Of a stretch of DNA of 18,880 nt, positions 1-18,880 are shown piece by piece. The stretch lies in IMG/VR virus record IMGVR_UViG_2740892422_000003, positions 1 to 18,880 of that record; one strand, 5' to 3'. Under the pieces are notes generated by a model. That model saw nothing but the letters and a program-made list of their open reading frames with translations, ran no database searches and had not been told where the DNA came from. The position numbers were made by a program, and so were the translations under genes. This DNA is from a virus. Lineage: Duplodnaviria > Heunggongvirae > Uroviricota > Caudoviricetes. Within the stretch, counting starts at the first letter, position 1; every line of letters begins with the position of its first letter.

Positions 1-50
1 TTGGTGGAGCTGGCGGGAGTTGAACCCGCGTCCGAAATTCCTACATCCTC
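1..50 (-). repeat. Left att direct repeat: 50-nt copy of the 3' end of the tmRNA gene ssrA, antisense on the + strand (displaced partial copy)
   Basis: Bases 1-50 are identical to 18831-18880. The reverse complement reads GAGGATGTAGGAATTTCGGACGCGGGTTCAACTCCCGCCAGCTCCACCA, the T-arm and acceptor CCA end of the tRNA-like domain of tmRNA. Sequence from 51 onward is AT-rich island DNA, not ssrA body. Confidence 0.85.
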
Positions 51-1143: not shown

Positions 1144-1149
1144 TTTTCT

Positions 1150-2163
1150 CTAAATTATTAATGATAAAGGATTTTTTGTTATTACATCTTCAAGATGCGT
1201 TGGCGCAAAGTGAGCATAGATCATAGTCATTTTTATATCTGAATGGCCTAAAATCTCTTTAAGAACAAGTATGTTTCCGCCATTCATCATAAAGTGGCTG
1301 GCAAATGTATGTCGTAATACATGTGTACACTGGCCTTCAGGCAGTACAATCCCCGCTTTAGCTACAGTACGCTCGAAAGTTTTACGGCACGGGGCAAACA
1401 ATTGGCCTCGTTTTTTTGGTATCTCGTTATAAAGCTCTTTTGAGATAGGTATAGAACGTACCTTTCTACTTTTCGTATTTTTGTAAGTGATACGGTATGG
1501 CGTAACTTGAGAGCCTTCTAGATTTTCCGCTTCACTCCACCTTGCACCGGTAGCAAGGCAAATCTTAGTGATGATGAGAACGTGCGGGCTATTAGATTCG
1601 GATAAATATTGTAAAAGAGTTTTGATTTCTTCTGAATAAAGAAAAGAAACCATTTTTTCATCAACTTTAAAGGTTGGAATTCCTGCCAATGGATTTGGAA
1701 GCGACCAATGGCCTAGTTTTTTTAGTGTACCAAATACGGCAGATAGATAGCGTTGCTCATGATTTACTGTCCGTGGTTGTATCGGCATACAACGTCCATT
1801 TATATCCGGAATTTCACCCTTTAAGCGACCTTCTCTGTATTGGCTGAAATCCGCCGCTGTGATTTGTGCTGCAATCGGATTTCCCATACCAGCACAAATA
1901 CCTTTCAATTTCGACATCATGCGGTCGGCATCTGCTAATGTTCGACCATATAGATCATGCCACTGCTCAATCAGATCTGATAAGCGTCGATTATCTTGCT
2001 TCTCACCCAGCCAGGGTTTGCCTTCCATTTCGCTGGCGATATATTTTTCATATGCCAGTGCTTCACCTTTCGTGGCGAATTTTTTACGAATACGCTTACC
2101 TTTCACCCCATTAGGGCGAAGATCGCACAACCATTCACCGCTTTCGATTTTCCGAACTGCCAT
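1150..2163 (-). CDS. int: Tyrosine site-specific integrase (P2/186 Int-like)
   Basis: 337-aa ORF. The C-terminal region carries tyrosine-recombinase signatures (HVLRHTFASHF and LGHSDIKMTMIYAHF with the catalytic Tyr). It lies next to the att repeat and the CI gene abuts it, as in P2/186. Confidence 0.93.
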   Translation of the reverse strand: MAVRKIESGEWLCDLRPNGVKGKRIRKKFATKGEALAYEKYIASEMEGKPWLGEKQDNRRLSDLIEQWHDLYGRTLADADRMMSKLKGICAGMGNPIAAQITAADFSQYREGRLKGEIPDINGRCMPIQPRTVNHEQRYLSAVFGTLKKLGHWSLPNPLAGIPTFKVDEKMVSFLYSEEIKTLLQYLSESNSPHVLIITKICLATGARWSEAENLEGSQVTPYRITYKNTKSRKVRSIPISKELYNEIPKKRGQLFAPCRKTFERTVAKAGIVLPEGQCTHVLRHTFASHFMMNGGNILVLKEILGHSDIKMTMIYAHFAPTHLEDVITKNPLSLII

Positions 2164-2738
2164 TACTCACTCACTAAGTATGTGGCCACAACCTTCCCAA
2201 TCAATTGCACATCAGATACGTCGCAATCAACTGGATATTTTCCCCAGTCAATCCGCAATTTGTTACCAGGAAGTAACGTCAATTCTTTGATGCTTTTCGT
2301 ACCAGAATACTCAAGAAGGAACTTACCGTCCGTAACAGGGTAATCAGCGATATCTACGAAAAATCTCACTGAACTATCACTGATTATTTGAAGTTCACCT
2401 TTGTAGTTGGGGAGTATTGTCTTATCGAAAATTACGGATGCTTGGCGAACCATATCAGACCCTTCGATTTTATAGGCTGAGATTCGAGTGGTATCACTTG
2501 CCACCTGATCAAATCTAACGCCATCACCAGTGGTTAGCCAGTAGATAGAAGCTCCTGTTTCTAGAGCACAAAGTAGTACTAAATCAGCAGGAAAGTTGTC
2601 ACGCATGATACGTGTACTTAAAGCACTTGGAGACATTCCAAGATAATTTGCTAACTGCATTCTGGATGTAAAACCATAAGCCTCACACACCCTTTCGATT
2701 GCTTCGCGTGCACCTGTCTTGATGTTGTAAGTTGTCAT
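2163..2738 (-). CDS. cI: CI-type immunity repressor (phage 186 CI-like), about 191 aa from the internal ATG
   Basis: Sequence from the internal Met (MTTYNIKTGAREAIERVCEAYGFTSRMQLANYLGMSPSALSTRIMRDNFPADLVLLCALETGASIYWLTTGDG) has an N-terminal HTH-like region and the size of 186 CI. Its stop overlaps the int start by 1 nt. The track ORF extends to 2852, but that 38-codon extension overlaps the operator/promoter region, so the ATG at 2736-2738 is preferred. Confidence 0.8.
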   Translation of the reverse strand: MTTYNIKTGAREAIERVCEAYGFTSRMQLANYLGMSPSALSTRIMRDNFPADLVLLCALETGASIYWLTTGDGVRFDQVASDTTRISAYKIEGSDMVRQASVIFDKTILPNYKGELQIISDSSVRFFVDIADYPVTDGKFLLEYSGTKSIKELTLLPGNKLRIDWGKYPVDCDVSDVQLIGKVVATYLVSE

Positions 2739-2889
2739 GTTTGTAGTTCGCAACTGTTGACAAACGACAATTTTAAAAATAATCTCTGAATTGTTTCGAA
2801 TGTAGATATTGATAATTGTCGTTTGTAGATTATTAACAACTATTGTCACCAACGCTCATTAGTGACAAACGAATGAGGAATTTTGCCGT
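2739..2889. promoter_or_regulatory. Lysis-lysogeny switch region with repeated operator-like motifs and a rightward promoter
   Basis: Between divergent cI and the early operon. An 8-9 bp motif GTTTGTAG / GACAAACG occurs in both orientations at about 2739-2746, 2757-2767, 2817-2828 and 2864-2871. A TTGACA (2757-2762), 17-nt spacer, TAATCT (2780-2785) arrangement is a sigma70-like promoter pointing toward the early operon. Confidence 0.55.
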
Positions 2890-3078
2890 ATGCAAACTAA
2901 AGCTGCAACACATTCAGAAAGCAGGTGGGTACCTCTGAAAACGTTTTGCGACAGGGTTGAAATAAAACTGCGCACGGGACGTTACTGGGTACACACTGGC
3001 AAACTCAAAATCAAACCTAAAAGCAAACCGAAAGAACATGTGTTTGTAGATTGGCTTGCGTGGAACAGTGAAAAGTAA
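2890..3078 (+). CDS. Small basic DNA-binding protein, Cro/Apl/Cox-like (62 aa)
   Basis: First gene of the rightward early operon, divergent from cI. Small and basic (KLKIKPKSKPKEH). The call rests on synteny with 186 apl and P2 cox, not on recognised sequence similarity. Confidence 0.5.
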   Translation: MQTKAATHSESRWVPLKTFCDRVEIKLRTGRYWVHTGKLKIKPKSKPKEHVFVDWLAWNSEK

Positions 3079-3121
3079 TCATCACTTTTAGTGATTTTGA
3101 GATTGGGATGGAAGAAAAACA

Positions 3122-3625
3122 ATGTTTGATTACCAGACCTCTAAACATGCGCACTTTGATGCGGCTTGCCGAGCATTTGCAATTGAGCACAATCTTGAAG
3201 ATGTGGCCGCTGCCGTTGGTATGAGGCCGCAGATCCTGCGCAACAAACTGAACCCAGCACAACCGCACCGCCTGACCTGTGATGAGCTTTTGGCTATCAC
3301 GGATTACACCGAAGATGCGCGTTTGCTTGATGGAATGTTAGGTCAGATTAACTGCCTTCCATCCGTGCCGGTGAACAATGCCACAGAAGGCAACATGCAG
3401 TTGTGCGCACTGAGTGCCACAGCCTGTGTGGGCGCGATTGCTGGGGAAGCCGTATCAACTGGCCATATGACTGCCGCCCGCCGTACTCAAATTCTGGATC
3501 GTGCCCGCGATGCAATCCGTAGCTTATCCGTGCTGGCTTATACCGTTGAAAGCCGTATTCACTCTGCGCCTGTTCTGGCCGCTGCGGTGGATCTGGCCAC
3601 AACCAACGCCACCGGCCTGATGTGA
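3122..3625 (+). CDS. cII: CII-like phage regulatory protein (phage 186 CII family)
   Basis: 167 aa, beginning MFDYQTSKHAHFDAACRAFAIEHNLEDVAAAVGMRPQILRNKLNP, with a predicted HTH. Same position and size as 186 CII. Confidence 0.75.
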   Translation: MFDYQTSKHAHFDAACRAFAIEHNLEDVAAAVGMRPQILRNKLNPAQPHRLTCDELLAITDYTEDARLLDGMLGQINCLPSVPVNNATEGNMQLCALSATACVGAIAGEAVSTGHMTAARRTQILDRARDAIRSLSVLAYTVESRIHSAPVLAAAVDLATTNATGLM

Positions 3626-3634
3626 GGGAACACC

Positions 3635-3808
3635 ATGAAAGCGTTTGTCACTTACCTGAAAAAAGAATCACCAGACATGCAGTTGCCGAGTGGTTCAACG
3701 GGATGGATAGAACTTCCGAACGGTCAGCGCTGGAACCCTGGCCACATGTACAAATTCAATGGCCAGCAGCCGCGTCGCCCATGGTGGCGTCGTCTGATGG
3801 GGCTATAG
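3635..3808 (+). CDS. Small hypothetical early protein (57 aa), not in the ORF track
   Basis: ATG at 3635 is preceded by GAGGGAA about 7 nt upstream, immediately after the cII stop. Translation is MKAFVTYLKKESPDMQLPSGSTGWIELPNGQRWNPGHMYKFNGQQPRRPWWRRLMGL. The overlapping frame (track ORF 3622..) gives a W/P-rich sequence that looks like out-of-frame noise. Confidence 0.4.
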   Translation: MKAFVTYLKKESPDMQLPSGSTGWIELPNGQRWNPGHMYKFNGQQPRRPWWRRLMGL

Positions 3809-3816
3809 GGGGCGTT

Positions 3817-4245
3817 ATGGCGATTAGCCAGGAACAGCAAAAGCGCGGGTTGGAGCATTGTAAAAGAATGCGTCTTCAGATCAACCCAGCCTACAGCGAT
3901 GCGGGGGACTGGTGGGACAACTTGACACCAGAGTGGCGCGGCGTGGTGCTTCATGCTGCTGCTGTTACTTCAGGTGCCGGGGTATTTAAAGCCCACTTAA
4001 GCAAATGCTGCTGGCAGGAACTTTATGAACGTCTGGGATATCGGGACATGATTCAACTACGACGGGGTATTTCACGGGCGCGCTTAACGTTCGAAGGTTT
4101 CGGCAGTTTACGTGACAGCGATTTTTCAAAGCGCACCGCGAACCGCCCGATCAAAAAGGCACATCCAATTTATAGCAGTAGCGGGGTGCAGATGGTGATC
4201 GCGCCTCATATCGTCCATAAGTTCCAGCAACAGGGGAATCACTAA
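3817..4245 (+). CDS. Hypothetical early protein (142 aa)
   Basis: Internal ATG of the track ORF 3622..4245, preceded by a G-rich RBS-like run. Its stop overlaps the start of the next ORF (ATGA). The start is ambiguous; in-frame ATGs at 3703 and 3781 are alternatives. Confidence 0.5.
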   Translation: MAISQEQQKRGLEHCKRMRLQINPAYSDAGDWWDNLTPEWRGVVLHAAAVTSGAGVFKAHLSKCCWQELYERLGYRDMIQLRRGISRARLTFEGFGSLRDSDFSKRTANRPIKKAHPIYSSSGVQMVIAPHIVHKFQQQGNH

Positions 4246-4646
4246 TGACCATTATTTCCGTTGAGGGTAAATCGTTGGGGGCTGAACTGGCTGTGTGGGG
4301 TGTCCCGCATAATTACGCTGTAGCGTTTGCAGCGAAAAGCACCAGTAAGAATGGCCGCATCGCTTTGCATCCGTTCTTCTTCAATGACACCGAGCACATG
4401 ACGAATCCGCGTCACTGGCTGGCGATCAATGCCGCTTTCTGGTGTTGCGTGTATCGCGAAGCTGAAAGCAAAGAAGCCCAGATAGAAGCGCTGGCGGGGA
4501 TTCGTGCAATTTTCTATACAGCTGGGGCGCTGGGTGTTGGCGAGATAAAAGCGCTGATCCAGGAGTGGTGGCGGACAACCTATGAGCTTCACCTGATTCC
4601 GGCACCGAACTACTCAGCCGCTACAGTACAACCCACTTTTCACTAA
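4245..4646 (+). CDS. Hypothetical early protein (133 aa)
   Basis: ORF translationally coupled to the upstream gene. No family recognised. Confidence 0.6.
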   Translation: MTIISVEGKSLGAELAVWGVPHNYAVAFAAKSTSKNGRIALHPFFFNDTEHMTNPRHWLAINAAFWCCVYREAESKEAQIEALAGIRAIFYTAGALGVGEIKALIQEWWRTTYELHLIPAPNYSAATVQPTFH

Positions 4647-4713
4647 TTAACAGCCTGAATTTTTTGGCCACGGTTCAAGTGGCCGGGGATTCTTTTGCCT
4701 TAAGGAAACCAAA

Positions 4714-4947
4714 ATGCACATGACACGTCAGGATTTACCCGCAACAAAATCAGGCACCGACCTGCTGGCCATGCTCACCAAAGCCACGCAGGAAGGTAAA
4801 GCCGCAGCTGCTGATCTGTGTTCCACACGTCTGGATAAGCTGGCCACCCATGCAGCCAATGAAGGTTTAAGCGCAGCGGAAATCGTTGAGTTAATCCGCG
4901 AAGAAGCCGCAGCGATTTGCAGCAAAGGCGGTGCGGCATGGCAATAA
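4714..4947 (+). CDS. Hypothetical small protein (77 aa), Ala-rich
   Basis: ATG preceded by AAGGAAA. Its 3' end overlaps the dam start. Confidence 0.5.
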   Translation: MHMTRQDLPATKSGTDLLAMLTKATQEGKAAAADLCSTRLDKLATHAANEGLSAAEIVELIREEAAAICSKGGAAWQ

Positions 4948-5798
4948 AAACTCCGCTTAAATGGGTGGGCAGCAAAGCCCGCCTTATGCCTAAGCTGCGT
5001 CCGCACCTTCCTGAAGGTAAACGCCTGGTTGAACCGTTCGCAGGTTCCTGCGCCGTCATGATGAATACGGATTATGACGATTATCTGATCGCAGATGTGA
5101 ATCCTGATCTGGTTAATCTTTATAAGGCGATGGCGTATCACACTGATGTGCTGCTGAATGAGCTGGAGAGCCTGTTTACTGCCGGTTCGTTAGGTGATGA
5201 AGAAAGCCGTGCCGTTTTCTATTACGCCGTGCGTGATGCTTTCAATCTTTCTGGTGGTAAGGCCGGTTCTGAATCTGTTGAAAATGCTGCGCGTTTCCTG
5301 TACCTGAATCGCCACTGTTTCAATGGCCTGTGCCGGTATAACCGCCGAGGCCAGTTCAACGTCCCGTTCGGTAAGTACAAAAAGCCTTATTTCCCCGCTG
5401 ATGAAATCCGCGCTTTTGCTGAAAAAGCGAAACGCGCAACGTTCATTACTGCCCACTATTCAGAAACGCTCGATTTGGTTCGGGACGGGAATGACGTTGT
5501 TTACTGTGATCCACCTTATCTGACTGAAAGCGATAATTTCACCGCTTACTATGGGCTCGGTTTTTCGCACATGGATCAGGGGAGGCTGGCGCGTAAGTTG
5601 CGCCGTCTGGCCAGAAAAGGCGTGCCGGTTGTGGCCTCTAATGCCGATCTGGAAATGGTGCATTACCTGTACGCCGGATTTGAAGCCGTTCGCATTAATG
5701 CCCCGCGTAGTGTTGGTGCCGCAGCTGCAAGCCAGAAAGTTGCTGCAGAGTTAATTCTGAAGTCGCCGCTTGATTCTATAGCGATGGCCTGCGCATGA
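4938..5798 (+). CDS. dam: DNA adenine methyltransferase (Dam-like, GATC N6-adenine MTase family)
   Basis: Motif I LKWVGSK, HLPEGKRLVEPFAGSCAVMMNTDYDDYLIADVNPDLVNLY, FLYLNRHCFNGLCRYNRRGQFNVPFGKYKKPYFP and catalytic DPPY (VVYCDPPYL) align closely with E. coli Dam as I recall it. Start set at the internal ATG (MAIKTPLKW); the track start at 4917 is an alternative. Confidence 0.9.
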   Translation: MAIKTPLKWVGSKARLMPKLRPHLPEGKRLVEPFAGSCAVMMNTDYDDYLIADVNPDLVNLYKAMAYHTDVLLNELESLFTAGSLGDEESRAVFYYAVRDAFNLSGGKAGSESVENAARFLYLNRHCFNGLCRYNRRGQFNVPFGKYKKPYFPADEIRAFAEKAKRATFITAHYSETLDLVRDGNDVVYCDPPYLTESDNFTAYYGLGFSHMDQGRLARKLRRLARKGVPVVASNADLEMVHYLYAGFEAVRINAPRSVGAAAASQKVAAELILKSPLDSIAMACA

Positions 5799-7816
5799 CT
5801 CCTGTCGCAAATGGCCAACATCATGCCGTCGATACCTGGCGGCGTGAAACGTTCGCACCGGGTACGCCTACAGACGCCACGATCACCGAGCGCCGCCTGT
5901 GGGCGGTTAATCCGCAGGATTACGAATGGCGCTCACAGTACCTGCATGAGATACCCGACTGGTTAGCCGGGTATTTTGGCCGTCGTTACGAAAAGCTTTT
6001 TTCTGGCCGTGACGGGCGTCGCCGTGCCAATACATTCCTGCGCAAAACAATCGGTGAGAATGTATTGCCACGTCTGCGCAAAGTGGCTGCGCGTTACTCG
6101 CTGGCCGCTGATGCTGCTGATCTTCCTTTTGGTAAGTCGCTGGAGCGCTTGCCGTCACTAGACCGTCCTGATCTTAAAAAACTGGCTGGCCAGGTATCTG
6201 GTTGGATTTCCCAGTCACTTTATGACTTCACCGAACAGTTTGATTCCGGCACTGACGATGCCAGAGAGCTGCATCGCCGCACCCTGGAATCTTACCGCCA
6301 TCTTTGTGCCTGTTGCCTGATGCTGAATAACCAGCCGCCGTACTGGACTGAACATGAGGCCAATGAAGGTCAACTGGAAATGCGTAAGGCGGAATCCGGG
6401 ATACTGCGCATGATGGCGCCGGAATGGTGGTACCTGCGTCTTAAACGTGCGCGTGATACGAAGCGCGAGCACATGGCCATTGCGGTGGGACAGGTGCAAA
6501 AAGCGGCCAGCGCTTATGTATCCCGCAAAACACTGGGCGAATGGATAGACCAGAAAAAGCGGAATCTGGAGTTCTTTAAAAAGTTTGATCTGCTGAATGA
6601 TGAGGGGCTGCGCATTGCACTGGACAGCCTGGTGCACCGCAGCGTTGCAAATCCGGCGATCCGTCGATGTGAACTAATGGTAAGAATGCGAGGGTTTGAA
6701 GATATGGCCAATGAAGAAGGACTGGCCGGTGAGTTTTACACCATCACCGCGCCATCACGTTTCCACGCAGTGCACAGCAAAGGTGGCTTTGTATCGCAAT
6801 GGGATGGATGTACGCCGCAGGATACCCAGCGCTATTTATGCGGCATATGGGCAAAAGCACGCGCAGCGATCTCGCGTGCGGGTATTCATGTATTTGGGTT
6901 TCGGGTTGTTGAGCCTCACCATGACGGGACACCGCACTGGCATATGTTGCTTTTTATGCGTCCGCATGACGTGGACACGGTACGCGATATTCTTTGCTAT
7001 CACGCCAGAATTACCGATTCTGAAGAACTGCAATCTGAAAAGGCGCTGAAGGCGCGTTTTCATGTTGAAGCGATCGATCCCGCCAAAGGTTCGGCCACGG
7101 GCTACATCGCGAAATACATTTCAAAAAATATTGATGGTTTTGCGCTGGATGGTGAGCAGGACGAAGAAACCGGCGAAAACCTGCGTGATATGGCTAAGTC
7201 CGTTTCCGCGTGGGCTTCACGCTGGCGTATTCGCCAGTTTCAGCAGATTGGTGGTGCGCCGGTAACTGTCTGGCGTGAGCTGCGTCGGTTGCGGGATCAG
7301 GTGCTGACCGATCGCAGAATGGATGCGGTTCTGGCCGCTGCTGATGTCGGTGACTGGGCTGCATATACCCAGGCGCAGGGCGGTGCACTGGTTGCCCGCC
7401 GTGATCTGGTTGTTCGTCTGGCCTATGAAATTACGGAACAGGGCAACGAGTACGCAGAGGACGTACAGCGCGTACAGGGGGTTTATTCTCCTTTAGTTCC
7501 TGATTCAGAAGTTTGCACCCGTCTGGTTAAGTGGCAAAAGGTTGCGAAGTTGGCCGAAGCGCCAGCGGAGGCGGGGTTTTCTGGCGGCAACGCCGCCCCT
7601 TGGAGTTCTGTCAATAACTGTACGGAGGGGGGAGCCCGCAGACGGTTAAAACTGGAATTACGCAGTCGGGGTTTTGAGGGTTCCGATGAAGAAATAGCCA
7701 TTCTCCTGCGGGGTAGTGGTTTGAGATTCGGTCAAGGGGCGCTGATTTACCGTAATGGGCGGCTTAAAGAGACTCAAAACGAGCCATTACAGGAGCTGTG
7801 GCCGGGGTGGGTGTAG
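5795..7816 (+). CDS. Rolling-circle replication initiation protein (P2 gpA / 186 A-like)
   Basis: 673 aa. Contains an HUH-type motif (HHDGTPHWHMLLF) and a downstream tyrosine motif (GYIAKYISKN) typical of P2 A-family nickases. Sits after the early regulatory genes as in P2/186. Start overlaps the dam stop (ATGA). Confidence 0.88.
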   Translation: MTPVANGQHHAVDTWRRETFAPGTPTDATITERRLWAVNPQDYEWRSQYLHEIPDWLAGYFGRRYEKLFSGRDGRRRANTFLRKTIGENVLPRLRKVAARYSLAADAADLPFGKSLERLPSLDRPDLKKLAGQVSGWISQSLYDFTEQFDSGTDDARELHRRTLESYRHLCACCLMLNNQPPYWTEHEANEGQLEMRKAESGILRMMAPEWWYLRLKRARDTKREHMAIAVGQVQKAASAYVSRKTLGEWIDQKKRNLEFFKKFDLLNDEGLRIALDSLVHRSVANPAIRRCELMVRMRGFEDMANEEGLAGEFYTITAPSRFHAVHSKGGFVSQWDGCTPQDTQRYLCGIWAKARAAISRAGIHVFGFRVVEPHHDGTPHWHMLLFMRPHDVDTVRDILCYHARITDSEELQSEKALKARFHVEAIDPAKGSATGYIAKYISKNIDGFALDGEQDEETGENLRDMAKSVSAWASRWRIRQFQQIGGAPVTVWRELRRLRDQVLTDRRMDAVLAAADVGDWAAYTQAQGGALVARRDLVVRLAYEITEQGNEYAEDVQRVQGVYSPLVPDSEVCTRLVKWQKVAKLAEAPAEAGFSGGNAAPWSSVNNCTEGGARRRLKLELRSRGFEGSDEEIAILLRGSGLRFGQGALIYRNGRLKETQNEPLQELWPGWV

Positions 7817-7896
7817 TTGTGTAAGTATGTGAAAGGCATTCATTTGTCAGTAGATGGCAGGAAAAAGCACTTTCACATTTTGTGCTTAAATGTATA

Positions 7897-7912
7897 CTGT
7901 GTTTATATACAG
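7897..7912. promoter_or_regulatory. LexA (SOS) box, CTGT-N8-ACAG
   Basis: CTGTGTTTATATACAG is a perfect match to the CTGT-N8-ACAG LexA consensus with an AT-rich centre. It overlaps candidate -10 elements (TATACT about 7893-7898, TATATA about 7904-7909). Confidence 0.7.
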
Positions 7913-7931
7913 TTATTCTGTTTTTGGGAGG

Positions 7932-8150
7932 ATGCTTGTGCAGGATTTGTTTTTGGAAACTATCGCATTGCAGCGGATTGCGTTGTTTACAAGGCTTATA
8001 GCTAAAAGTAATTGCACCGGCTGTGAGAAAGACATAGCACTTGCCTGGCTGAGCGAACTGACTTCAGATCTGGAAAGTAAGCTCGATGAGTATGAGAACA
8101 AAACCCCCAGTAATGGGGGCATTTCAGGCGGCGGGAGTCGCTTTCAGTAG
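7932..8150 (+). CDS. Small LexA-controlled ORF (72 aa), positional analogue of a Tum-like SOS antirepressor
   Basis: ATG at 7932 immediately follows GGGAGG and lies about 20 nt downstream of the LexA box. Translation begins MLVQDLFLETIALQRIALFTRLIAKSNCTGCEKD. Its 3' end overlaps the convergent ogr-like gene by about 27 nt. No sequence similarity to Tum recognised. Confidence 0.35.
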   Translation: MLVQDLFLETIALQRIALFTRLIAKSNCTGCEKDIALAWLSELTSDLESKLDEYENKTPSNGGISGGGSRFQ

Positions 8151-8447
8151 GTCTAATGCCATCTGGCGCTGATCGGGTGAAAGTGCATTCAGTATTTTTT
8201 GCACCATCGCATCACCCGTTTTAGCGCTGGGGCTGAGAGTGTGGGAGAACGTCAGATTCATAACAAACGTATGGCCACACTCAACATCTGAACAGGCGCA
8301 GTAAATATCCGCAATTTGCCGGTGCTTCCTGTTCGTTTTACGAATAACAGCCTTTGAGCCGCATTCCGGGCATTCGATTTTCAGAACTCGCATATTCCAT
8401 GCTCCAGCTGTTAAATGATGCCTGGATTTTAGCCTGTTTCGCCTCAT
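8124..8447 (-). CDS. ogr: Ogr/Delta-family zinc-finger late transcription activator
   Basis: Contains CPECGSKAVIRKTNRKHRQIADIYCACSDVECGHTF, matching the Cys4 pattern of P2 Ogr / 186 B (CPxC ... YxQCxNxxCxxTF). The track start overlaps the portal stop (ATGA); an internal Met (MRVLKIECPECG) directly before the zinc finger is an alternative start. Confidence 0.8.
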   Translation of the reverse strand: MRRNRLKSRHHLTAGAWNMRVLKIECPECGSKAVIRKTNRKHRQIADIYCACSDVECGHTFVMNLTFSHTLSPSAKTGDAMVQKILNALSPDQRQMALDLLKATPAA

Positions 8448-9505
8448 GCCGCACCCTTATCCGTTGATTCTGTGTAACTTAAATCAAAGTTAAGGTGTAG
8501 CCTTTCCGGTATTTCGGGATCGTTGTTAACGGCCAGCATGAAACGGCGCTGGATGGGGGCTATTTCGCTTTTCTTGTAAATGCGTTCAGCCTTTTCAACA
8601 TCCCCCAGTCCGGCAGTGTTCTGCGGGACAATACCGGCGAGGCCAGCAGGGAAACGGTGCGCGTTCAGAATGTCCTGGGCGCTGATGTTTTTGATGTTGG
8701 CAAATTCATCCTTCGCGGAAATATCCCCCATTTCAATGAATTTGATTGCGTCACCGTCTCCACCAGGAATGTTTACAAGGATGGTGGAGAAGTTACCGAT
8801 CCCTTTGCTGTCACGCAGCTGCTGTTCAATTTCTTCCTCCATTTCGTCCGTCATGCTGGGATCGCGGGTATAAAGAATACCGCCAGTGTGCGCACCGTTG
8901 TGGTAATAGCGGCGTCGGAAAATGACCGCTTCACTGTTTAGTAACGCGGAATGCACGCCGCCGATGTAGTCCGGCAGTCCGTAGATATGCTGTTGCGGGT
9001 CATACATTTTGATGAAGATAATATCTTCTTCTGGCCATACCTGCGGTTCTCCTTCCTGTAACACCACGTAGTCACCGGGCTTATCCTGGGCGTTATCTCT
9101 GACTTTGCGGCGGCGAATATACAGACCGGGCAAGGGTTCAAGTGCGATCACGTCGCCCCAGCCGTTACGAATTTTGGCAATTGCAATATCCCCAAAGGTT
9201 ATATAGTCAAACGCTGCCGCTTCCAGCTGGTCGTGAATAAGCCCGCCCCCCTGGTAGTCTGAAACAATCATGTTTTTGCGGGCGTGAATGATGCCGCCGT
9301 GCTGACCGTTAAGATTAATCAGCTGTGCGAGTGCCAGCCGGTCAATCGGCTGGGTGAAGTGATCGGCGGCATTGTCGTACCAGATATCACGATAATCTGT
9401 GCCGGTAGTCAGAACCGGTTCAGGTTTGCCGAATGTGATAATGCTCATCTTTTTTGATTTGTCGCCGCGCTGGTCGCGCTTAACAAAGCGTTTCTTTTTA
9501 CTCAT
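8444..9505 (-). CDS. Capsid portal protein (P2 gpQ-like)
   Basis: 353 aa, same size and position as P2 Q (downstream of and overlapping the terminase gene, divergent from scaffold/capsid genes). Basic N-terminus (MSKKKRFVKRDQRGDKSKK). Confidence 0.8.
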   Translation of the reverse strand: MSKKKRFVKRDQRGDKSKKMSIITFGKPEPVLTTGTDYRDIWYDNAADHFTQPIDRLALAQLINLNGQHGGIIHARKNMIVSDYQGGGLIHDQLEAAAFDYITFGDIAIAKIRNGWGDVIALEPLPGLYIRRRKVRDNAQDKPGDYVVLQEGEPQVWPEEDIIFIKMYDPQQHIYGLPDYIGGVHSALLNSEAVIFRRRYYHNGAHTGGILYTRDPSMTDEMEEEIEQQLRDSKGIGNFSTILVNIPGGDGDAIKFIEMGDISAKDEFANIKNISAQDILNAHRFPAGLAGIVPQNTAGLGDVEKAERIYKKSEIAPIQRRFMLAVNNDPEIPERLHLNFDLSYTESTDKGAA

Positions 9506-11277
9506 GCTGCCTCTTTCCTTACACCCCAGCGGGATTTAGGTTTGTTTTCATAGTTAAGGGGTTCGTTATGCAGACCGTGGGTAATCGCCCAGAACGCCTC
9601 CGCGTGGCCAGTATCCTGGCTGCGGTCAGCGACAAACGTCATGGCGTTGCCGCTTTGTGTGGTGGTTCGGCGCACAGACATAAAGCTGGCCGCGATCTCT
9701 TTCAGGTTTTTATCCCACTCAATACGCTGGCTTTCCACCACGTCCACCGCTTTCAGTACCAGTTGATTTTTAGTGTTCAGGTCGTAACGAATAGGGACGG
9801 CCACGCGCATGGCAAAATGCTGAATGTTGTCAAAAACACCCTGGCCAATGCCGGTAACGTCCACCCCCAGATAAGTGAAGTTGTATTTTTTGAACAACTG
9901 CTCGATCTGTTTTGCCTGATACCGGAAGTTCATGCCTTTCCAGTAAATCACCTTCAGAACGCGGAACTTCTCCACGGCGAGCATCGGTGGAGCGATGATG
10001 ACAAAACAGGACAAATCACCGCTGCGAGCCGGGTCAAAGCCACCCCATACAGGTCTGTCACCGAATGGCCGCGCTGCATCAGGATTGTGATCCTGCCAGG
10101 TGTCGATTTCAACGCCGCAGGCTTCCAGATCGGAAAAGCTGAAAACGGAATCTTTGCTGTCAACGAACACGCACATATAGAGCATGTTAAAAGTGGCGTC
10201 GTTGTAGCGGTTGCGAAGTTTCTCGATGTTCGCCAGGTTGAAACCGCCCGCAATGGCATCTTCCATCGTAATGACGTAGCGCCATTGCCCATCCGGGCAG
10301 AGTCGCCCACCGTCACGCATTTCGTTAAAGGAAGGAAACTTAATGGCCGCACGTTTTTTACTGCCCTGTTTCCACTCATCGCCCGTCCAGAACGGGTACG
10401 CCTGGTGCGTTTTTGCCGATGGCGTTGAAAAATAGGTGGTACGCCACTTGTCATGCGTGGCCATTGCGCTGGCCACTTCGTTAAGTTTTGCAAAGTTTGG
10501 TACCCAGAAATATTCGTCACAGTACAGGTGGCCGCTGTAGGACTGGGCGGTGTTTTTGTTGGTGGAGAGAAAACGCAGTTCTGCGCCGTTGCTTAAGCGG
10601 ATCGGGTTGCCGGTCAGCGTAATACCGAAATACTGCTCTGCAATATTCACGATGTAAGACCGGAACACTTCAGCCTGAGCCTTTGACGCTGACAGAAAGA
10701 TTTGCGGATCGCCGGTCATCACCGCGTTTTCAAACGCTTCAAACGCAAAATACCAGGTTGCACCGATCTGGCGGCTTTTCAGGATGTTCCTGACAAGCTG
10801 GCCAATGTTATTGCGCAGGTGTTTCTGATATTCAAAAAGATGTTCCTCAGCCCATGCGTCAAAGTCCTCCTGCGTCAGCGAGGTAATATCGTTTTTCTTG
10901 TACTTCCGTTTGCTGCGCGGTTCGTCGTCATTGTTGTCCCGTGCAGTTGCTTGCCCGGAACTCTGACCGCTGGCCATTTTCTCTTTATGTTTATTACTCT
11001 GCGCACGCAGTTTGGTGGCATGAGTAATGAGCATGTCCATTTCTTTCAGGTCGAGATCGGTTTTGTTATCGCGGCTGGCCAGCAGCTGGTAACGGCGTTC
11101 AATCGCTTCCTCTGTGCTTTCAAAACTGAGCAAATCCGCCCAGCTGTATTTCTCCGCCCAGTAGTAAACGATCCGCGCATTCGGCAGATTTAATTCAGAT
11201 GCGATTTCCTTTGGCGTATAGCGGCGCAGATAAAGTGCGCGAACAACGCCTTTTAATTCTTCAGAGTATTTAGCCAT
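9502..11277 (-). CDS. Terminase large (ATPase) subunit (P2 gpP-like)
   Basis: 591 aa (P2 P is about 590 aa). Divergent from the scaffold gene across a short control region and followed by the portal gene with a 4-nt overlap, as in the P2 head module. Confidence 0.82.
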   Translation of the reverse strand: MAKYSEELKGVVRALYLRRYTPKEIASELNLPNARIVYYWAEKYSWADLLSFESTEEAIERRYQLLASRDNKTDLDLKEMDMLITHATKLRAQSNKHKEKMASGQSSGQATARDNNDDEPRSKRKYKKNDITSLTQEDFDAWAEEHLFEYQKHLRNNIGQLVRNILKSRQIGATWYFAFEAFENAVMTGDPQIFLSASKAQAEVFRSYIVNIAEQYFGITLTGNPIRLSNGAELRFLSTNKNTAQSYSGHLYCDEYFWVPNFAKLNEVASAMATHDKWRTTYFSTPSAKTHQAYPFWTGDEWKQGSKKRAAIKFPSFNEMRDGGRLCPDGQWRYVITMEDAIAGGFNLANIEKLRNRYNDATFNMLYMCVFVDSKDSVFSFSDLEACGVEIDTWQDHNPDAARPFGDRPVWGGFDPARSGDLSCFVIIAPPMLAVEKFRVLKVIYWKGMNFRYQAKQIEQLFKKYNFTYLGVDVTGIGQGVFDNIQHFAMRVAVPIRYDLNTKNQLVLKAVDVVESQRIEWDKNLKEIAASFMSVRRTTTQSGNAMTFVADRSQDTGHAEAFWAITHGLHNEPLNYENKPKSRWGVRKEAA

Positions 11278-11437
11278 GCGGATAATTATGCCGTGGCTGT
11301 GATGAAAAAACGGTGGTGTTAATTCGTGTCCGTTCGGTAAAGCGTTATAACCGAACTGTTCAGAATAAAGCGTAATGCAGTGGCGGTTTTATTTGGCAAT
11401 AATTGATTTGCAGCGTCAGGGAGTGGAACAGGGGGAT
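11278..11437. promoter_or_regulatory. Divergent late-promoter region between terminase (leftward) and scaffold (rightward) genes, containing a dyad symmetry element
   Basis: Inverted repeat GTTCGGT-N11-ACCGAAC at about 11332-11356, embedded in TGTCCGTTCGG...CCGAACTGTTCAG. It lies between two divergently starting late operons, where P2-type late promoters carry the activator-binding dyad. Confidence 0.5.
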
Positions 11438-12241
11438 ATGTCACATTTAAAAACTGACTGGCTGTGTGTTGCTACTGAAGGGGATACCGTTGACGGCAGG
11501 GTAATTAAACGGCAGTGGATCATTGATATGGGGGAAACCTATGACTATAGCCACTATGTCGCTTTAATCTGGCCAGAACATGAGGATGATTGCGGAAATT
11601 TTGGTGAAGTGCTGGAAGCCACCTGGAATGATGGTGAAGATGGACTGGCACGGTTATATGTCAGCCTTTGCCCGAATATGCGTCTGATTTTCGCAAATCA
11701 TGAAGATCAGCTTTTGTTCTTCTCCATTGAGCCGGAAGAAAACTGGCGCGGTAGCGGGCGTACTTACCTGAAAGGGCTGGCGGTAACAGATACACCTGCC
11801 AGCGTTGGCACCACACGGCTGCGCTTTAGTAGTCGGCGCAATAAATTAACAAAGCAGGGATATTACAGCTGTGTAATTTCCCATGACGGAAAAATTAAAC
11901 AGGAAGCAAGAATGAAGAACTGGCAGAAACTGTTTGGTCTTAAACCAAAGTTTGAAGATGAAACGCCGCAGGATAATCCTGCCCCGGATGAAGATAAATT
12001 ACAGGCGCTTGCCAATGTGGTTAACGATCTGGAAGCGCGTGTGGCGAAAATTGAAACTCAACTGAATGACGTTCAGGGTGATGTTGACACAATCGCTGAA
12101 GTGGTGGATACGCAGGAATTTGCGGCAATTCGCGATAATGCAAAAGAAATCGTAACCCGCTTTAACGATTTGGGTAATAAAAACCCCCGTACACCGGGGC
12201 GTACTATTAAAGATAAAGCCGGGAAATTTAATTTCCTGTAA
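11438..12241 (+). CDS. Capsid scaffolding protein (P2 gpO-like)
   Basis: Internal ATG preceded by AGGGGGA. N-terminal VATEGDTVDGRVIKRQWIIDMGETYD resembles the P2 O N-terminus (GVEGDTCDGRVI...) as I recall it, and YLKGLAVTDTPASVGTTRLRF resembles the conserved gpO protease-like segment. The track ORF begins 63 nt upstream at 11375. Confidence 0.8.
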   Translation: MSHLKTDWLCVATEGDTVDGRVIKRQWIIDMGETYDYSHYVALIWPEHEDDCGNFGEVLEATWNDGEDGLARLYVSLCPNMRLIFANHEDQLLFFSIEPEENWRGSGRTYLKGLAVTDTPASVGTTRLRFSSRRNKLTKQGYYSCVISHDGKIKQEARMKNWQKLFGLKPKFEDETPQDNPAPDEDKLQALANVVNDLEARVAKIETQLNDVQGDVDTIAEVVDTQEFAAIRDNAKEIVTRFNDLGNKNPRTPGRTIKDKAGKFNFL

Positions 12242-12303
12242 TTCGCTTTATTGCTGATTAGTCCAGAACATATTTTTAAATCGCTTAATTGCGAGGGAGT
12301 TTT

Positions 12304-13326
12304 ATGCACCTTAATAATCGTGCGCGGGATTTACTGGATAAATATTCGGCGGGGATGGCGCAGCAGTTTGGTGCGCGTGATACCAGTCGATATTTTTCCC
12401 TGAATGACCCGCAGGAAAATGCGCTGCGTCTTGCGTTGCTGGAATCCGTCGAGTTCCTGAACATGATCACCTGTCTGGATGTTGACCAGCTGAGTGGCCA
12501 GGTGATCTCTGTCGGTTCTTCCGTGCTGCATACCGGCCGCAGCGAAAATGGCCGTTTTATTCGTCAGGTAGGCGTTGACGGTAATGACTATTCCCTGGTT
12601 GAAACAGACAGCTGCGCCGCACTGCGCTGGGATCTGCTTTCTGTCTGGGCAAACGCCGGTAAGGACGAAAACGAATTTTACAACCTGGTACAGGCATTCA
12701 CCACGCAGGCTTTTGCGCTGGACATGTTGCGCATTGGTTTCAATGGTAAGAGCCGGGCGAAAACCACTGATCCGGTAGCAAACCCGAACGGTGAAGATGT
12801 GAACATCGGCTGGCATGAGCGTATGAAAACGCTGCTGGGCGGCAATCAGATTATGACGGATGCCGTGGTGCTTGATGAGGCCGGGGATTACAAGTCACTG
12901 GATGCAATGGCGTCCGATCTGATTAACGCCAAAATCCCGGCGCAGTTCCGCAATGACCCGCGTCTGGTTGTCCTGGTCGGTGCCGATCTGGTCGCTGCTG
13001 AACAGTACCGACTGTATCAGGCGGCAGACCGTCCGACTGAAAAAATTGCTGCGCAGATGCTGGGAAGTACCATTGCTGGCCGTCAGGCCATTATCCCGCC
13101 GTTTATGCCGGGTAAACGCATGGTGGTTACGCCGCTTTCTAACCTGCACATCTACACCCAGCGCAATACCCGTATGCGTAAGGCGGAGTTTGTTGAAGAT
13201 CGTAAGCAGTTCGAAAACAAATACCTGCGCAATGAAGGTTACGCGGTGGAAGTGCCGGAGCTGTATGCGGCCATTGATGAATCCGCAGTGACGATCGGCA
13301 AAGTCTCCGAACCGGTGGAGGGCTGA
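12304..13326 (+). CDS. Major capsid protein (P2 gpN-like)
   Basis: About 340 aa from the ATG preceded by GAGGGAG. Segments FNGKSRAKTTDPVANPNGEDVNIGWHE and GDYKSLDAMASDLIN resemble recalled P2 N sequence. Directly follows the scaffold gene. Confidence 0.85.
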   Translation: MHLNNRARDLLDKYSAGMAQQFGARDTSRYFSLNDPQENALRLALLESVEFLNMITCLDVDQLSGQVISVGSSVLHTGRSENGRFIRQVGVDGNDYSLVETDSCAALRWDLLSVWANAGKDENEFYNLVQAFTTQAFALDMLRIGFNGKSRAKTTDPVANPNGEDVNIGWHERMKTLLGGNQIMTDAVVLDEAGDYKSLDAMASDLINAKIPAQFRNDPRLVVLVGADLVAAEQYRLYQAADRPTEKIAAQMLGSTIAGRQAIIPPFMPGKRMVVTPLSNLHIYTQRNTRMRKAEFVEDRKQFENKYLRNEGYAVEVPELYAAIDESAVTIGKVSEPVEG

Positions 13327-13329
13327 TAA

Positions 13330-15222
13330 ATGGCACTTTCCCCCGCGCAGCGTCACAGCCAGCGCATTGCGATGGAACAAAAGCTGAAACGCAGCCAGGC
13401 ACTGGAAACCACGGAAAGTATGCACCTGCTGATCAGGGCGTTGGAAACAGATGTGGAACACGTTCGAAGTCTGCCTACCATCGCCGATCGCGTCGAGTAT
13501 AAACGCGATGTGCTGTTAATGATGAAACCAGTAAAACGCCTTTACCTTTCAACGGATGAAGTTCACCTGGTGGATGCCAGCCTGGTACTGGAGCTGAACA
13601 GCTGCGGCCGGGGCTTCATCACCGCAGAGACAACAACCGATTACACCGGAAAACTGGTGCGGCTGGATGTGGGGTATACCGATCTGCTTTTGCGCTGGTT
13701 TACGGGGTATGTGGAGCGATCACAGCCCGCAGAAAACGGTTTTCAGCGTCTGTTCATTCGTGAGCTGGCAGGTGTGTTTGAAAGGATGTGGCCGTGTTCG
13801 TTTCAACACCCGACTTTGCGAGAAATTGCGGGCTGGCTGGAAGAAAACAGCGGGATCACAGTCAGTGTGCCTGATGCACAGTACAGCGATACCCCCATCC
13901 CACATTTTACCCATAACGGTACTGGTTATCAGTTGCTGAACAATCTGGGCAGGGCGTTCAGTATCCAGGATTACATCTGGTACCAGTTGCCTGATGGTTC
14001 GCTTTACGTCGGCGGCGCAGAAAAATCATTGTTTGCCGGTCGTCCCGTAGAAATCCCGTCAGAGTTCAGCCAGGGGGCTGCTGGCGGTAACTCTGTGACA
14101 TTACCAGTGATCCAGACTATGCGGCCAGGGGTGGAGATGAACGGTGAACGCGTGACTAAAGTTCACCTGACGAATGACACGATGGCGATCACATGGACGC
14201 CGAGAAACCGCGCAACGGGTAAACCTTTGCAGAAAACACCGGCGCAACGGCAGATTGAAAGCCATTACCCGGAACTGGCATCCGGGCTTCATTTGCCAAA
14301 GATGGCCAGAGTCGTGGCGCATTCAGAGCCAGTAAAAAGCGGTAACTTTGCCGATCCCTTCCGGCCACGTTACGCAGTGGACGTGCAGCTGCTTGACGCA
14401 GACGGAAACCCGGACAATCAGACGCCTGTTTACTCAGCGGTGCCGCTGCCGGTGCCAATGGCCGGGAATGATTCAGGTATGTTTCAGTTCCCGCCAGAAG
14501 GGACGCTGGTTGAGGTTGCATTCACGGGAGGCAGACCGGATAAACCCTTTATCAGGCAGACGCTGCCGGATGGTACCAGCCTGCCGGACGTTAAACCCGG
14601 TGAGCAATTGCAGCAGCAGCGGGAAGAAGTTTCCCAGCGGGTGACTCAGGCAGGAGACTGGGTAAGACAGACCGATCAGACCATCAGTGAAACATCGATG
14701 GTGCGAACGGTAAAGGCCGATACGGAACAGCGCGAACTGGTCAGCCGTGAAACCACGGTGAAAGCCACGGATAAAACTACGGTACTGGGAACCGCCACAC
14801 TGCTGGCCGGAGCTATTCAGCAGGTAAGCGCCGGTGATTATAGCCAGGCGGTGAAAGGTAACAGACTGGCCAGTATTGAAGGAAACGAAGAAACGGACAT
14901 AGCAGGACAGCAGTCCACTAAAGTGGGCGGTGCTGTAGCCGTGGAGGTTGGCGAAAGCCTGACAGAGAAAATTGCCGCACTGCGTAAATCAGTGGCCGCT
15001 GGCGGTCAGCAGGTCATGGGGGCAACTGTCCATATTGGCAGTGAGAGTATCAACGCCCTGACCATGATGCTGGATACCATTGATTTACTGGCAGATCTGG
15101 CGCAGCAATGCGCGAGCCATTCGCACCCCACCGTTGGGACGCCAACCAATGCCGCCGCGTTCACACAGACGGCGACGAAAGCCGGGCAGACCCGGAGCAA
15201 GTACCAGGGGATCATTGCTTAA
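13330..15222 (+). CDS. Chimeric 630-aa protein: small-terminase-like N-terminus (gpM-like) joined to a baseplate central-spike-like C-terminus (gpV/gp5/VgrG-like OB fold plus His-containing apex)
   Basis: Starts 4 nt after the capsid gene stop, with GGAGGG upstream. The N-terminus MALSPAQRHSQRIAMEQ resembles the start of P2 gpM (MTSPAQRH..., from memory). The C-terminal half has an OB-fold spike signature (FQFPPEGTLVEVAFTGGRPDKPFI), a repetitive T/V/K-rich segment (TVKADTEQRELVSRETTVKATDKTTVLGTA) and an HxH element near the end (CASHSHPTVGTP). Confidence 0.6.
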   Translation: MALSPAQRHSQRIAMEQKLKRSQALETTESMHLLIRALETDVEHVRSLPTIADRVEYKRDVLLMMKPVKRLYLSTDEVHLVDASLVLELNSCGRGFITAETTTDYTGKLVRLDVGYTDLLLRWFTGYVERSQPAENGFQRLFIRELAGVFERMWPCSFQHPTLREIAGWLEENSGITVSVPDAQYSDTPIPHFTHNGTGYQLLNNLGRAFSIQDYIWYQLPDGSLYVGGAEKSLFAGRPVEIPSEFSQGAAGGNSVTLPVIQTMRPGVEMNGERVTKVHLTNDTMAITWTPRNRATGKPLQKTPAQRQIESHYPELASGLHLPKMARVVAHSEPVKSGNFADPFRPRYAVDVQLLDADGNPDNQTPVYSAVPLPVPMAGNDSGMFQFPPEGTLVEVAFTGGRPDKPFIRQTLPDGTSLPDVKPGEQLQQQREEVSQRVTQAGDWVRQTDQTISETSMVRTVKADTEQRELVSRETTVKATDKTTVLGTATLLAGAIQQVSAGDYSQAVKGNRLASIEGNEETDIAGQQSTKVGGAVAVEVGESLTEKIAALRKSVAAGGQQVMGATVHIGSESINALTMMLDTIDLLADLAQQCASHSHPTVGTPTNAAAFTQTATKAGQTRSKYQGIIA

Positions 15223-15319
15223 TGCTGGTATTCATGTGATAAGTTGAGACGTTCTGGACTTCCTGATGGCTGTAGCTCTGTTGTTGGGTAGCCCAGAAAA
15301 ATTCGAAATAAAATGGGTA

Positions 15320-18830: not shown

Positions 18831-18880
18831 TTGGTGGAGCTGGCGGGAGTTGAACCCGCGTCCGAAATTCCTACATCCTC
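18831..18880 (-). repeat. ssrA: Right att direct repeat: 3' end of ssrA (tmRNA), probably the end of the intact gene whose body lies beyond the window
   Basis: Identical to bases 1-50. The reverse complement is the tmRNA 3' tRNA-like end with CCA. For a minus-strand ssrA the gene body would lie at coordinates above 18880. Confidence 0.85.

Follow-up and report, generated by a model that had tools for sequence, protein, structure and literature searches.

Closest described systems and placement of the element

In Haemophilus phage HP1, cos and attP lie beside int, followed by the early and replication genes, with Q and P running leftward and O, N and M rightward, and the tail cluster ends in orf33-orf34-orf35. 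Coliphages 186 and P2 carry CI, Apl/Cox, CII, Fil, gpA with a conserved ori core, Ogr and the Q/P/O/N head proteins. cf-PICIs, which are capsid-forming, tail-stealing satellites, encode a protease, head-tail connectors, HNH, TerS and TerL, are regulated as PICIs and have no close relationship to any phage. P4-like satellites have no capsid genes and are marked by sid/psu, an alpha primase-helicase and a delta activator. Deletion-made cryptic prophages, such as those of P2-like and lambdoid phages in E. coli, are flanked by att sites, are collinear with a complete phage and lack essential morphogenesis or lysis genes.

The window analyzed here is one complete contig of 18,880 bp, filled from end to end by the element (1 to 18880). 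An earlier note had described it as 186/P2-like. The switch is of 186 type, but neither P2 nor 186 is among the closest relatives, which are ESSI-2-like phages (Peduoviridae, Quadragintavirus) whose genes are ordered as in HP1. Escherichia phage ESSI2_ev040 (NC_049393) has the same gene order and ∼95% nucleotide identity across the cII-to-capsid and baseplate/acetyltransferase regions (94.9 to 95.5% over 8.6 kb and 1.7 kb, syntenic), placing the element beside a classified member of the family. It differs from the window in integrase (only ∼50% identical), CI and cargo, and the window lacks the stretch from terS codon 63 to the baseplate gene. The RefSeq genome of ev040 retains a sequencing adapter. 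The HP1 arrangement is shared by the window, and Pfam HP1_Orf24 and HP1_ORF34 were found in its intact relatives, but the host is different, no cos DNA similarity to HP1 was detectable, and its switch and replication proteins resemble those of 186/P2. In contrast to 186 and P2, with which it shares the gene set above, the window has no P2/186 cos 19-mer, its ogr adjoins the portal gene, and the tail module is HP1-like; among the phage matches listed by megablast, none was to P2 or 186.

The ends of the window, 1 to 50 and 18831 to 18880, are exact 50-nt direct repeats equal to the 3' end of the tmRNA gene (ssrA). The left copy, attL (1..50, minus strand), has been displaced and matches the tmRNA 3' end in reverse complement, and attR (18831..18880, minus strand; Rfam RF00023, 53.4 bits, model positions 325 to 374) is the functional ssrA 3' end, the body of the gene lying beyond the window. 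No tRNA genes were found by a tRNA scan. In an intact sibling prophage, smpB comes after attR/ssrA. The host species is E. coli, whose ssrA gene harbors the prophage at its 3' end. The limits proposed previously, 2163 to 15222, were too narrow and left out cargo genes on both sides.

Genes retained between the att sites

The earlier note had described a lysogeny switch, replication genes, a late activator and P2-type portal, terminase, scaffold and major capsid. Intact open reading frames were recovered for the integrase, CI, a Cox/Apl-like protein, CII, Fil, the Dam methylase, gpA and Ogr, and for the portal, gpP-type large terminase, gpO scaffold and P2-family capsid. The tyrosine integrase of the ssrA-specific type (1150..2163, minus strand; Pfam Int_N and Phage_integrase) was found as an exact protein on 41 Escherichia contigs. 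It is followed by the CI repressor (2163..2741, minus strand; Pfam Phage_CI_repr and Phage_CI_C), whose likely start is the ATG giving ∼192 amino acids, and on the plus strand by a Cox/Apl-like excisionase-repressor (2890..3078; PHROG 575, E = 3.6e-14) and the CII (CP76) regulator (3122..3625; PF06892, E = 1e-46). Gene calls, Pfam and PHROG defined the early genes at 3635..4947 on the plus strand, comprising fil (3635 to 3808), orf142 (3817 to 4245), orf133 (4245 to 4646) and a DUF2732 gene (4714 to 4947). Next, also on the plus strand, are a Dam-type N6-adenine methyltransferase (4938..5798; PF02086, E = 1.7e-66), called an orphan methyltransferase by PADLOC, and the gpA replication endonuclease (5795..7816; Pfam Phage_GPA, E = 4.5e-104). 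By alignment to P2 gpA, the annotated P2 ori nick site (P2 29892) maps to GAGTTCTGTCAATAACTGT at ∼7600/7601.

Direct reading of the sequence revealed a LexA-box-like site, CTGTGTTTATATACAG, at 7897 to 7912 on the plus strand, followed by a 72-amino-acid open reading frame (7932 to 8150, plus strand) matching PHROG 698, a family without assigned function. From its position, which is that of tum in 186, this frame is a candidate SOS-controlled antirepressor. The Ogr/Delta late-gene activator (8124..8447, minus strand; PF04606, E = 9e-20) completes the set. The gpA rolling-circle initiator, the CI/Cox/CII switch and the Ogr activator are those expected of Peduoviridae, as are the P2-family capsid, gpO scaffold, portal and gpP-type large terminase described below.

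The intact portal of gpQ type (8444..9505, minus strand; Phage_portal, PF04860) is 100% identical to that of ev040 across 353 amino acids, and the intact large terminase subunit of gpP type (9502..11277, minus strand; Terminase_5, PF06056; Terminase_6N, PF03237; Terminase_6C, PF17289) is 98% identical across 591 amino acids. On the plus strand are the gpO capsid scaffold/protease (11375..12241; Phage_GPO, PF05929), with a real start possibly at 11438, and the intact major capsid protein of the P2 family (12304..13326; PF05125, E = 5.6e-99). The terminase assigned previously is thus complete in its large subunit only: of the small subunit gene, terS, the first 62 to 63 of 234 codons remain (13330..13517, plus strand), with residues 1 to 63 100% identical by tblastn, and the adaptor gene is also gone.

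No sheath, tube, tape measure, fiber, terminator, holin or endolysin gene is present in the element, and no head-completion/adaptor gene or connector homologue is left in it, so that the virion and lysis gene set of a viable phage is incomplete. The claim that tail and lysis genes are absent therefore stands for these functions, but a complete baseplate gene was overlooked in the last large open reading frame. That frame (13330 to 15222) encodes a 630-residue in-frame fusion in which the N-terminal part is the TerS stub and residues 64 to 630 are the whole baseplate protein. The profile search with Pfam and PHROG that had been proposed gave the head, switch and replication calls and also revealed this tail gene. 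The 567-amino-acid protein (13519..15222, plus strand; PHROG 2258, E = 5e-276) is homologous to HP1 orf35 and ev040 gp01, has weak Pfam matches to two spike domains, Phage_base_V and Gp5_C, and was found, as an exact protein, inside intact prophages.

The outer regions carry cargo. At the left is a 337-amino-acid open reading frame (130..1143, minus strand) of 31% GC with a hydrophobic N terminus; it belongs to PHROG 17460, a family without assigned function, had no match in Pfam or PADLOC and occurs as an exact protein on 17 E. coli contigs. At the right, a hexapeptide-repeat acetyltransferase moron (15320..15889, minus strand; Pfam Hexapep), also present in ev040 and the intact sibling, is followed by a PIN_12-domain protein (16662..17780, plus strand; PF16289, E = 2.9e-32), to which PADLOC gave no match, and an Abi_C/AbiJ-like abortive-infection protein (17924..18733, minus strand; PF14355; PADLOC AbiJ, E = 9e-17).

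No convincing cos had been noticed before, but a plausible candidate was located outside the interval then considered. It is a conserved noncoding block at ∼16148..16242 with the GC-rich core GGCGCTACACC/GCACCCGCCTGCGG, near-invariant in seven family members with differing flanks. HP1 cos is located directly downstream of orf35. The Nextera adapter in the ev040 assembly sits exactly between the positions equivalent to 16183 and 16184 of the window. Judged from sequence, this block is a candidate cos for the ESSI-2-like phages. Searches for the P2 and 186 cos 19-mers with up to 6 mismatches gave nothing convincing in the window or its intact relatives, and the HP1 cos region had no meaningful similarity to the noncoding DNA of the window. 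A site between gpA and the small open reading frame, at ∼7857, was an early idea abandoned for the conserved block.

The deletion junction and the intact sibling

The head and packaging genes without a tail had been taken to reflect either a deletion or an element producing capsids of its own and depending on a helper for tails. An intact sibling prophage in E. coli GCA_025430615.1, occupying the same ssrA/smpB locus and att site and carrying the same cargo genes, decided between the two. It differs from window positions 2304 to 13517 by 3 mismatches in 11,214 nt (99.973% identity) and from 13515 to 18880 by 1 mismatch in 5,366 nt (99.981% identity). Apart from these 4 mismatches, out of 16,580 aligned bases (99.97% nucleotide identity), only one deletion, of 12,872 bp, separates the two. 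The alignment to the sibling gave an exact breakpoint, and the intact, near-identical sister copy is the outcome that the earlier note had named as a refutation of a satellite. Loss of the tail and lysis region by deletion is therefore supported.

The junction lies at 13515..13517 within a 3-nt GTT microhomology, as seen in a three-way junction alignment and in the alignment to the sibling. The blastn alignments to intact phages end at 13517, and both sides of the junction are collinear with ev040 and with intact E. coli prophages. The deletion extends from terS codon 63 to 4 nt upstream of the last tail gene, which explains why one tail gene survives while terS and the adaptor gene are lost. 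It removed the rest of terS and the head-completion/adaptor, tail terminator, neck, sheath, tube and tape measure genes, together with the holin, endolysin, spanin, baseplate wedge, fiber and fiber-assembly genes and the homologues of HP1 orf33 and orf34. Between its att sites, the element is thus an intact phage save for a discrete deletion, as in cryptic prophages; unlike these, it is unusually young, with 4 substitutions in 16.6 kb and a single deletion separating it from the intact form.

A mis-join of short reads, the strain really harboring an intact prophage, was considered, as the window is a whole short-read contig ending in repeats. The independent Logan assembly ERR15942230, however, has the identical junction with 100% identity over 10,147 nt, a 3-nt overlap cannot produce a de Bruijn mis-join, and comparable deletions are present in closed long-read genomes. 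We regard such an artifact as extremely improbable.

The element superficially resembles a cf-PICI: it has an intact portal, large terminase, scaffold and capsid, no sheath, tube or fiber genes, and a layout similar to that of independent relatives (EcPF15, strain 300709 and locus L053). A satellite of this kind would build and fill its own capsids and take only tails from a helper. However, cf-PICIs encode TerS with TerL (plus HNH) and head-tail connectors with a maturation protease, whereas here only TerL is intact, terS is cut, no connector homologue was found, and gpO is a P2-type scaffold/protease. The baseplate gene is kept, and cf-PICIs are evolutionarily far from phages, in contrast to the near-identity with an intact prophage seen here. 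The 18.83-kb genome corresponds to 59% of the parental size, so that neither one nor two copies would be expected to fill a head of parental size. Nor does the element fit the P4-like satellites: full Q, P, O and N genes and gpA are present, and no open reading frame of the element matches sid/psu, alpha primase-helicase or delta functions.

A satellite would also be expected as a conserved lineage. The exact fusion protein was found on only 2 contigs, and the junction was absent from all 5,426 complete E. coli genomes searched. The exact capsid and baseplate proteins were indexed in 93 and 46 blocks of the collection, respectively, and every place listed was an intact prophage; these alleles occur in dozens of assemblies, with full tails in every case. 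Capsid-anchored surveys of 42 species-representative loci and 80 IMG/VR loci found the region after the capsid gene overwhelmingly intact, and the exceptions were a continuum of assorted, differing deletions. The search for a conserved truncated form, suggested earlier, thus failed to yield a single architecture. Since nearly identical intact copies occupy the same site in sister strains, the element is not regarded as a capsid-making satellite, and that reading is left very improbable.

The best explanation, with a probability of about 0.9, is a defective prophage formed by a very recent, single, microhomology-mediated deletion in a complete ESSI-2-like temperate phage of ∼31.7 kb in the 3' end of E. 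coli ssrA. The intact parent would be a member of the Peduoviridae that combines an HP1-type gene order with a CI/Apl/CII switch of 186 type. The GTT-overlap deletion of 12,872 bp brought the terS stub and the last tail gene into a single reading frame. The "heads without tails" appearance would then be an accident of the position of the deletion. Counted against this explanation are the full length of all retained genes, the retention of the cos candidate and the in-frame fusion. Such a prophage probably still represses, responds to SOS, excises and replicates, and its portal, large terminase, scaffold and capsid may be expressed from Ogr-dependent late promoters. Without TerS it would be unable to recognize cos, and it would be predicted neither to complete heads nor to build tails or lyse the cell, making it a dead end unless complemented.

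Judged from sequence alone, complementation by a coresident intact sibling may occur. Compatible with the deletion origin, the defective phage might occasionally be packaged and moved by a sibling supplying TerS, adaptor, tails and lysis; the element keeps int, cox, gpA with its ori, and the candidate cos block, and intact siblings circulate in E. coli. But the element has the very same CI immunity as the sibling and would repress it on superinfection, the genome length appears ill-suited to parental capsids, the cos is a candidate only, and the junction has not spread beyond the 2 contigs. Helper-dependent movement is accordingly judged improbable.

Recurrent truncation at terS

Within the ESSI-2-like family, at least nine independent deletions have an end inside a ∼100-bp zone near the start of terS (nt 117 to 222), several of them at identical nucleotides. 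Independent truncations that kept the head and lost the tail were seen in EcPF15, strain 300709 and L053. The protein search with the TerS N terminus was used for finding junctions only and not for frequencies, as it was biased by returning short proteins only. A single truncated ancestor with nested later deletions was rejected, because every truncated element has an intact phage of its own to which it is closer than to any other truncated element.

The recurrence looks like a mutational hotspot; that in EcPF15, strain 300709 and L053 could also be read as selection for the architecture. No Chi sites lie close to the terS zone, direct or inverted repeats joining terS to the tail end gave chance-level matches only, and stable DNA hairpins at the zone were not supported (best z-score, −1.9). 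CRISPR-spacer-like matches to terS were absent from 5,426 E. coli genomes, and the zone was not among the best matches to secondary gpA ori-like sites. A true site-preferring break or template-switch hotspot at terS nt 117 to 222, due to a specific enzyme or DNA-protein complex, is a tentative and rather doubtful proposal.

The combination of lysogeny, replication and head genes without tails mimics a capsid-forming satellite, and here one sister-strain alignment exposed a deletion product that is, in evolutionary terms, "days old." Because a recent deletion product can mimic a satellite, screens for satellites need a test of recency and synteny. A secondary value of the locus is the candidate cos position for ESSI-2-like phages. 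Were the hotspot real, it would predictably and repeatedly yield defective prophages in which cos and the genes for replication and capsid are retained, and "head-only" elements would be a recurrent class that could now and then hitchhike on intact siblings. A tendency to deletion at the start of terS would account for the recurrence of remnants with heads but no tails and would shape the decay of the ESSI-2-like prophage family.

Extent and gene content of the ssrA island

The window corresponds to the whole of assembly contig JRGC01000012.1 (GCA_000754855.1), in which the first 50 nt exactly repeat, in direct orientation, the last 50 nt. The att-like repeat matches the tmRNA 3' end in reverse complement (Rfam RF00023, 53.4 bits, 18832-18880, minus strand), and in sister genomes its right-hand copy continues into the E. 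coli ssrA/smpB locus. Therefore, the element is an island integrated in ssrA that spans 1-18880, not 2163-15222 as the earlier note had it. The exact integrase and left-end cargo protein are both on record from Escherichia coli. A tRNA or tmRNA gene usually adjoins int; here the arrangement is the reverse, with int at the island end distant from the ssrA gene body (1-50 versus 18831-18880). The right-hand repeat is the functional tmRNA 3' end, and the displaced fragment adjoins the cargo ORF and int.

Genes were assigned from left to right using Pfam, PHROGs and PADLOC together with gene calls. A 337-aa cargo ORF is leftmost, followed in order by integrase, CI, a Cox/Apl-like protein, CII and Fil; two unknown ORFs, DUF2732, a Dam methylase and gpA; a 72-aa ORF; Ogr, portal, large terminase, gpO scaffold and a P2-family capsid; a 630-aa ORF; and, at the right end, a hexapeptide acetyltransferase, a PIN_12 protein and an AbiJ-like Abi_C protein. 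The switch, replication, late-activator and head genes listed earlier were all recovered by these searches. The accompanying claim that tail and lysis genes were missing held for sheath, tube, tape measure, fibre, holin and endolysin, none of which was found in the window; one tail gene, encoding a complete baseplate protein, is present.

This protein forms most of the 630-aa ORF, a chimera in which residues 1-63 are 100% identical to residues 1-63 of the 234-residue small terminase (TerS) of Escherichia phage ESSI2_ev040, and residues 64-630 are the complete baseplate protein (PHROG 2258, E = 5e-276), homologous to HP1 orf35 and to gp01, the final tail gene of ev040. Phage_base_V and Gp5_C spike domains gave weak Pfam matches. 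Given this composition, one tail gene remains and terS and the adaptor gene are gone, neither an intact terS nor a head-completion/adaptor gene being present in the window.

Several smaller features were also observed. The SOS-box-like (LexA-box-like) sequence CTGTGTTTATATACAG lies in the promoter region of the 72-aa ORF, between gpA and ogr (7897-8150), a position occupied in 186 by tum, which suggests that the ESSI-2-like family is SOS inducible via a small antirepressor. The ORF varies among relatives, and an alignment gap at 7917-8104 was seen repeatedly in several comparisons. The P2 ori core at the annotated nick (GAGTCCTGTCAATAACTGT) is kept within gpA (7591-7625) as GAGTTCTGTCAATAACTGT, placing the replication origin at ~7600. 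Cargo flanks attP on both sides (130-1143 and 15320-18733), comprising a membrane ORF, the acetyltransferase, PIN_12 and the AbiJ-like Abi_C protein; otherwise near-identical siblings (L065/L066, 13217-14518) carry an FRG-domain protein and a small ORF in place of the PIN_12/Abi_C pair. Defence or moron genes appear to be readily exchanged in this slot beside ssrA.

Relatives and a candidate cos region

Although the element had been called 186/P2-like, its nearest phages are neither P2 nor 186 but the ESSI-2-like coliphages ESSI2_ev040, ev015 and ev129 (Peduoviridae, Quadragintavirus; ~30.6 kb), which were isolated from infant-gut viromes by Mathieu et al. (PMC6969025). In ev040, ~13 kb separates terS from gp01, encoding adaptor, tail terminator, neck, sheath, tube, chaperone, tape measure, baseplate, fibre, fibre-assembly, holin, endolysin and spanin functions plus two more genes.

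The earlier note found no convincing cos, and indeed no P2- or 186-type cos sequence was found; a candidate was nevertheless located beyond the interval it considered. The ESSI-2-like family has the gene order of HP1, in which cos lies immediately downstream of orf35, adjoining attP. Downstream of the orf35 homologue, the window retains a non-coding block (~16148-16242) that is near-invariant in seven family members with differing flanks. The virion-derived ev040 record (NC_049393.1) contains a 41-nt Nextera adapter remnant (CTGTCTCTTATACACATCT...) left in the RefSeq/GenBank sequence, with the mosaic end at 29647-29665 of that record. Its insertion point falls inside the block, exactly between window-equivalent positions 16183 and 16184, as expected if the original ev040 contig stopped at a physical DNA end. 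The block is therefore proposed as cos with moderate confidence. A publicly annotated 119-aa ORF (16120-16479) overlaps it, has no family match and is probably a spurious gene call.

Origin and class of the truncated element

Relative to ev040, the left breakpoint lies at terS nt 188 and the right one 4 nt upstream of the gp01 start codon (blastn), the join carrying a GTT microhomology. In GCA_025430615.1, a prophage sits at this ssrA/smpB site and shares the window's acetyltransferase, PIN_12 and Abi_C cargo, differing from the window by 3 mismatches in 11,214 nt (2304-13517) and 1 mismatch in 5,366 nt (13515-18880); the sole other difference is 12,872 additional bases at the junction. The intact prophage is thus ~31.7 kb, and the 18.83-kb window element is 59% of that. 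This alignment bears out the first of the two origins suggested earlier: the truncation is a simple deletion of recent date, and sister strains carry intact relatives.

The truncated form showed no conservation, and this, together with the alignment, is what the earlier note had named as refuting the other suggestion, a capsid-encoding satellite. Just two contigs, the window and one Logan assembly (100% identical over 10,147 nt), carried the fusion protein, and the junction was absent from all 5,426 complete E. coli genomes searched. Intact copies were found instead: the exact capsid protein was present in 93 blocks of the assembly collection, with full-length terS and then tail and lysis genes at all the capsid places listed, and the exact 567-aa baseplate protein in 46 blocks, always with a full tail cluster ahead of it; GCA_025430615.1 is among the genomes with this baseplate protein. 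Capsid-forming satellites (cf-PICIs) are defined as encoding capsid, protease, portal, head-tail connectors, HNH, TerS and TerL, with no tail genes, and as evolutionarily very distant from phages (bioRxiv 10.1101/2022.09.08.507074). Unlike these, the window element lacks TerS and connectors, retains a baseplate gene and amounts to a phage that has lost one segment, with a near-identical intact sibling; P4-type satellite features were also absent from it. The satellite reading is not supported, and the element, an ordinary and very young defective prophage, is best filed as such.

From its gene content, the element could probably still maintain repression, respond to SOS, excise and replicate, and produce head proteins; it would be unable to recognise cos, complete heads, make tails or lyse. 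Rescue by a sibling phage, which would supply these missing functions, is disfavoured by the immunity common to both and by the element's length, which matches neither a whole nor a half parental headful.

Recurrent deletions at the start of terS

Including the window (terS nt 188; 13330-13517), at least nine events end inside a ~105-bp stretch of terS (nt 117-222; L004, L005/L079 and L050-L055 among the compared loci). Breaks join terS nt 131 to a point within gp03 in EcPF15 (closed genome, ybjL site; the junction peptide is also P0007), nt 214 to a point inside the fibre-assembly gene in strain 300709 (IMG/VR locus L079 shows this event too), nt 216 to mid-gp01 in L051, nt 216 to the end of the adaptor gene in L052 (1.15 kb, tails retained), nt ~213-222 to gp01 in L050, nt 117 to the last 13 codons of gp01 in L053 and nt 120 to the tail-terminator gene in L054 (1.66 kb); L055 runs in the opposite direction, from the portal gene to nt 142. 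End positions recur at nt 117-120 (twice) and nt 213-216 (four times) with differing far ends. Left joins are mostly directly 3' of TGGAA, with overlaps of 3-5 nt. Every truncated element is nearer some intact phage than its fellow truncated elements; the deletions are therefore independent, and similar truncations recur as accidents. L051, 99.96% identical to an intact prophage, has three separate deletions at the locus; in the comparison of its SRR30549666 contig with L007 (99.96-99.98% identity to intact), these measure 0.5, 6.5 and 13.7 kb, so that several deletions accrued within almost no sequence divergence.

Chi sites near the zone, repeats connecting the endpoints, a strong hairpin, CRISPR-spacer-like matches to terS in E. 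coli and resemblance to the gpA ori core, whose position was taken from the nick site annotated in P2, were each sought as a cause, and all searches were negative.

Some junctions came from a terS N-terminus query able to find such cases only, so frequencies were taken from capsid-anchored surveys. None of 42 species-representative genomes had a terS-anchored deletion, and one had a deletion running from neck to tape measure. Of 80 IMG/VR loci, 62 kept the normal order downstream of the capsid gene; the exceptions that are real deletions broke at terS nt 214 in L079, at the capsid end in L130, at the tail terminator in L096 and L098, and at the sheath in L117. The adaptor gene was the break position in two additional remnants, and Combat13F7 has lost everything from the early region through just upstream of gp01. 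In these less biased sets, with the window excluded, a zone of <1% of the late region holds the start of ~2 of 10 late-region deletions, and we read the hotspot as real but not exclusive. The remnants form a continuum, with 1.1 to 22 kb lost, some retaining tails and others lacking heads. The terS hotspot explains the recurrence of remnants with heads but no tails, with no function required, and of the whole finding it alone deserves further attention.
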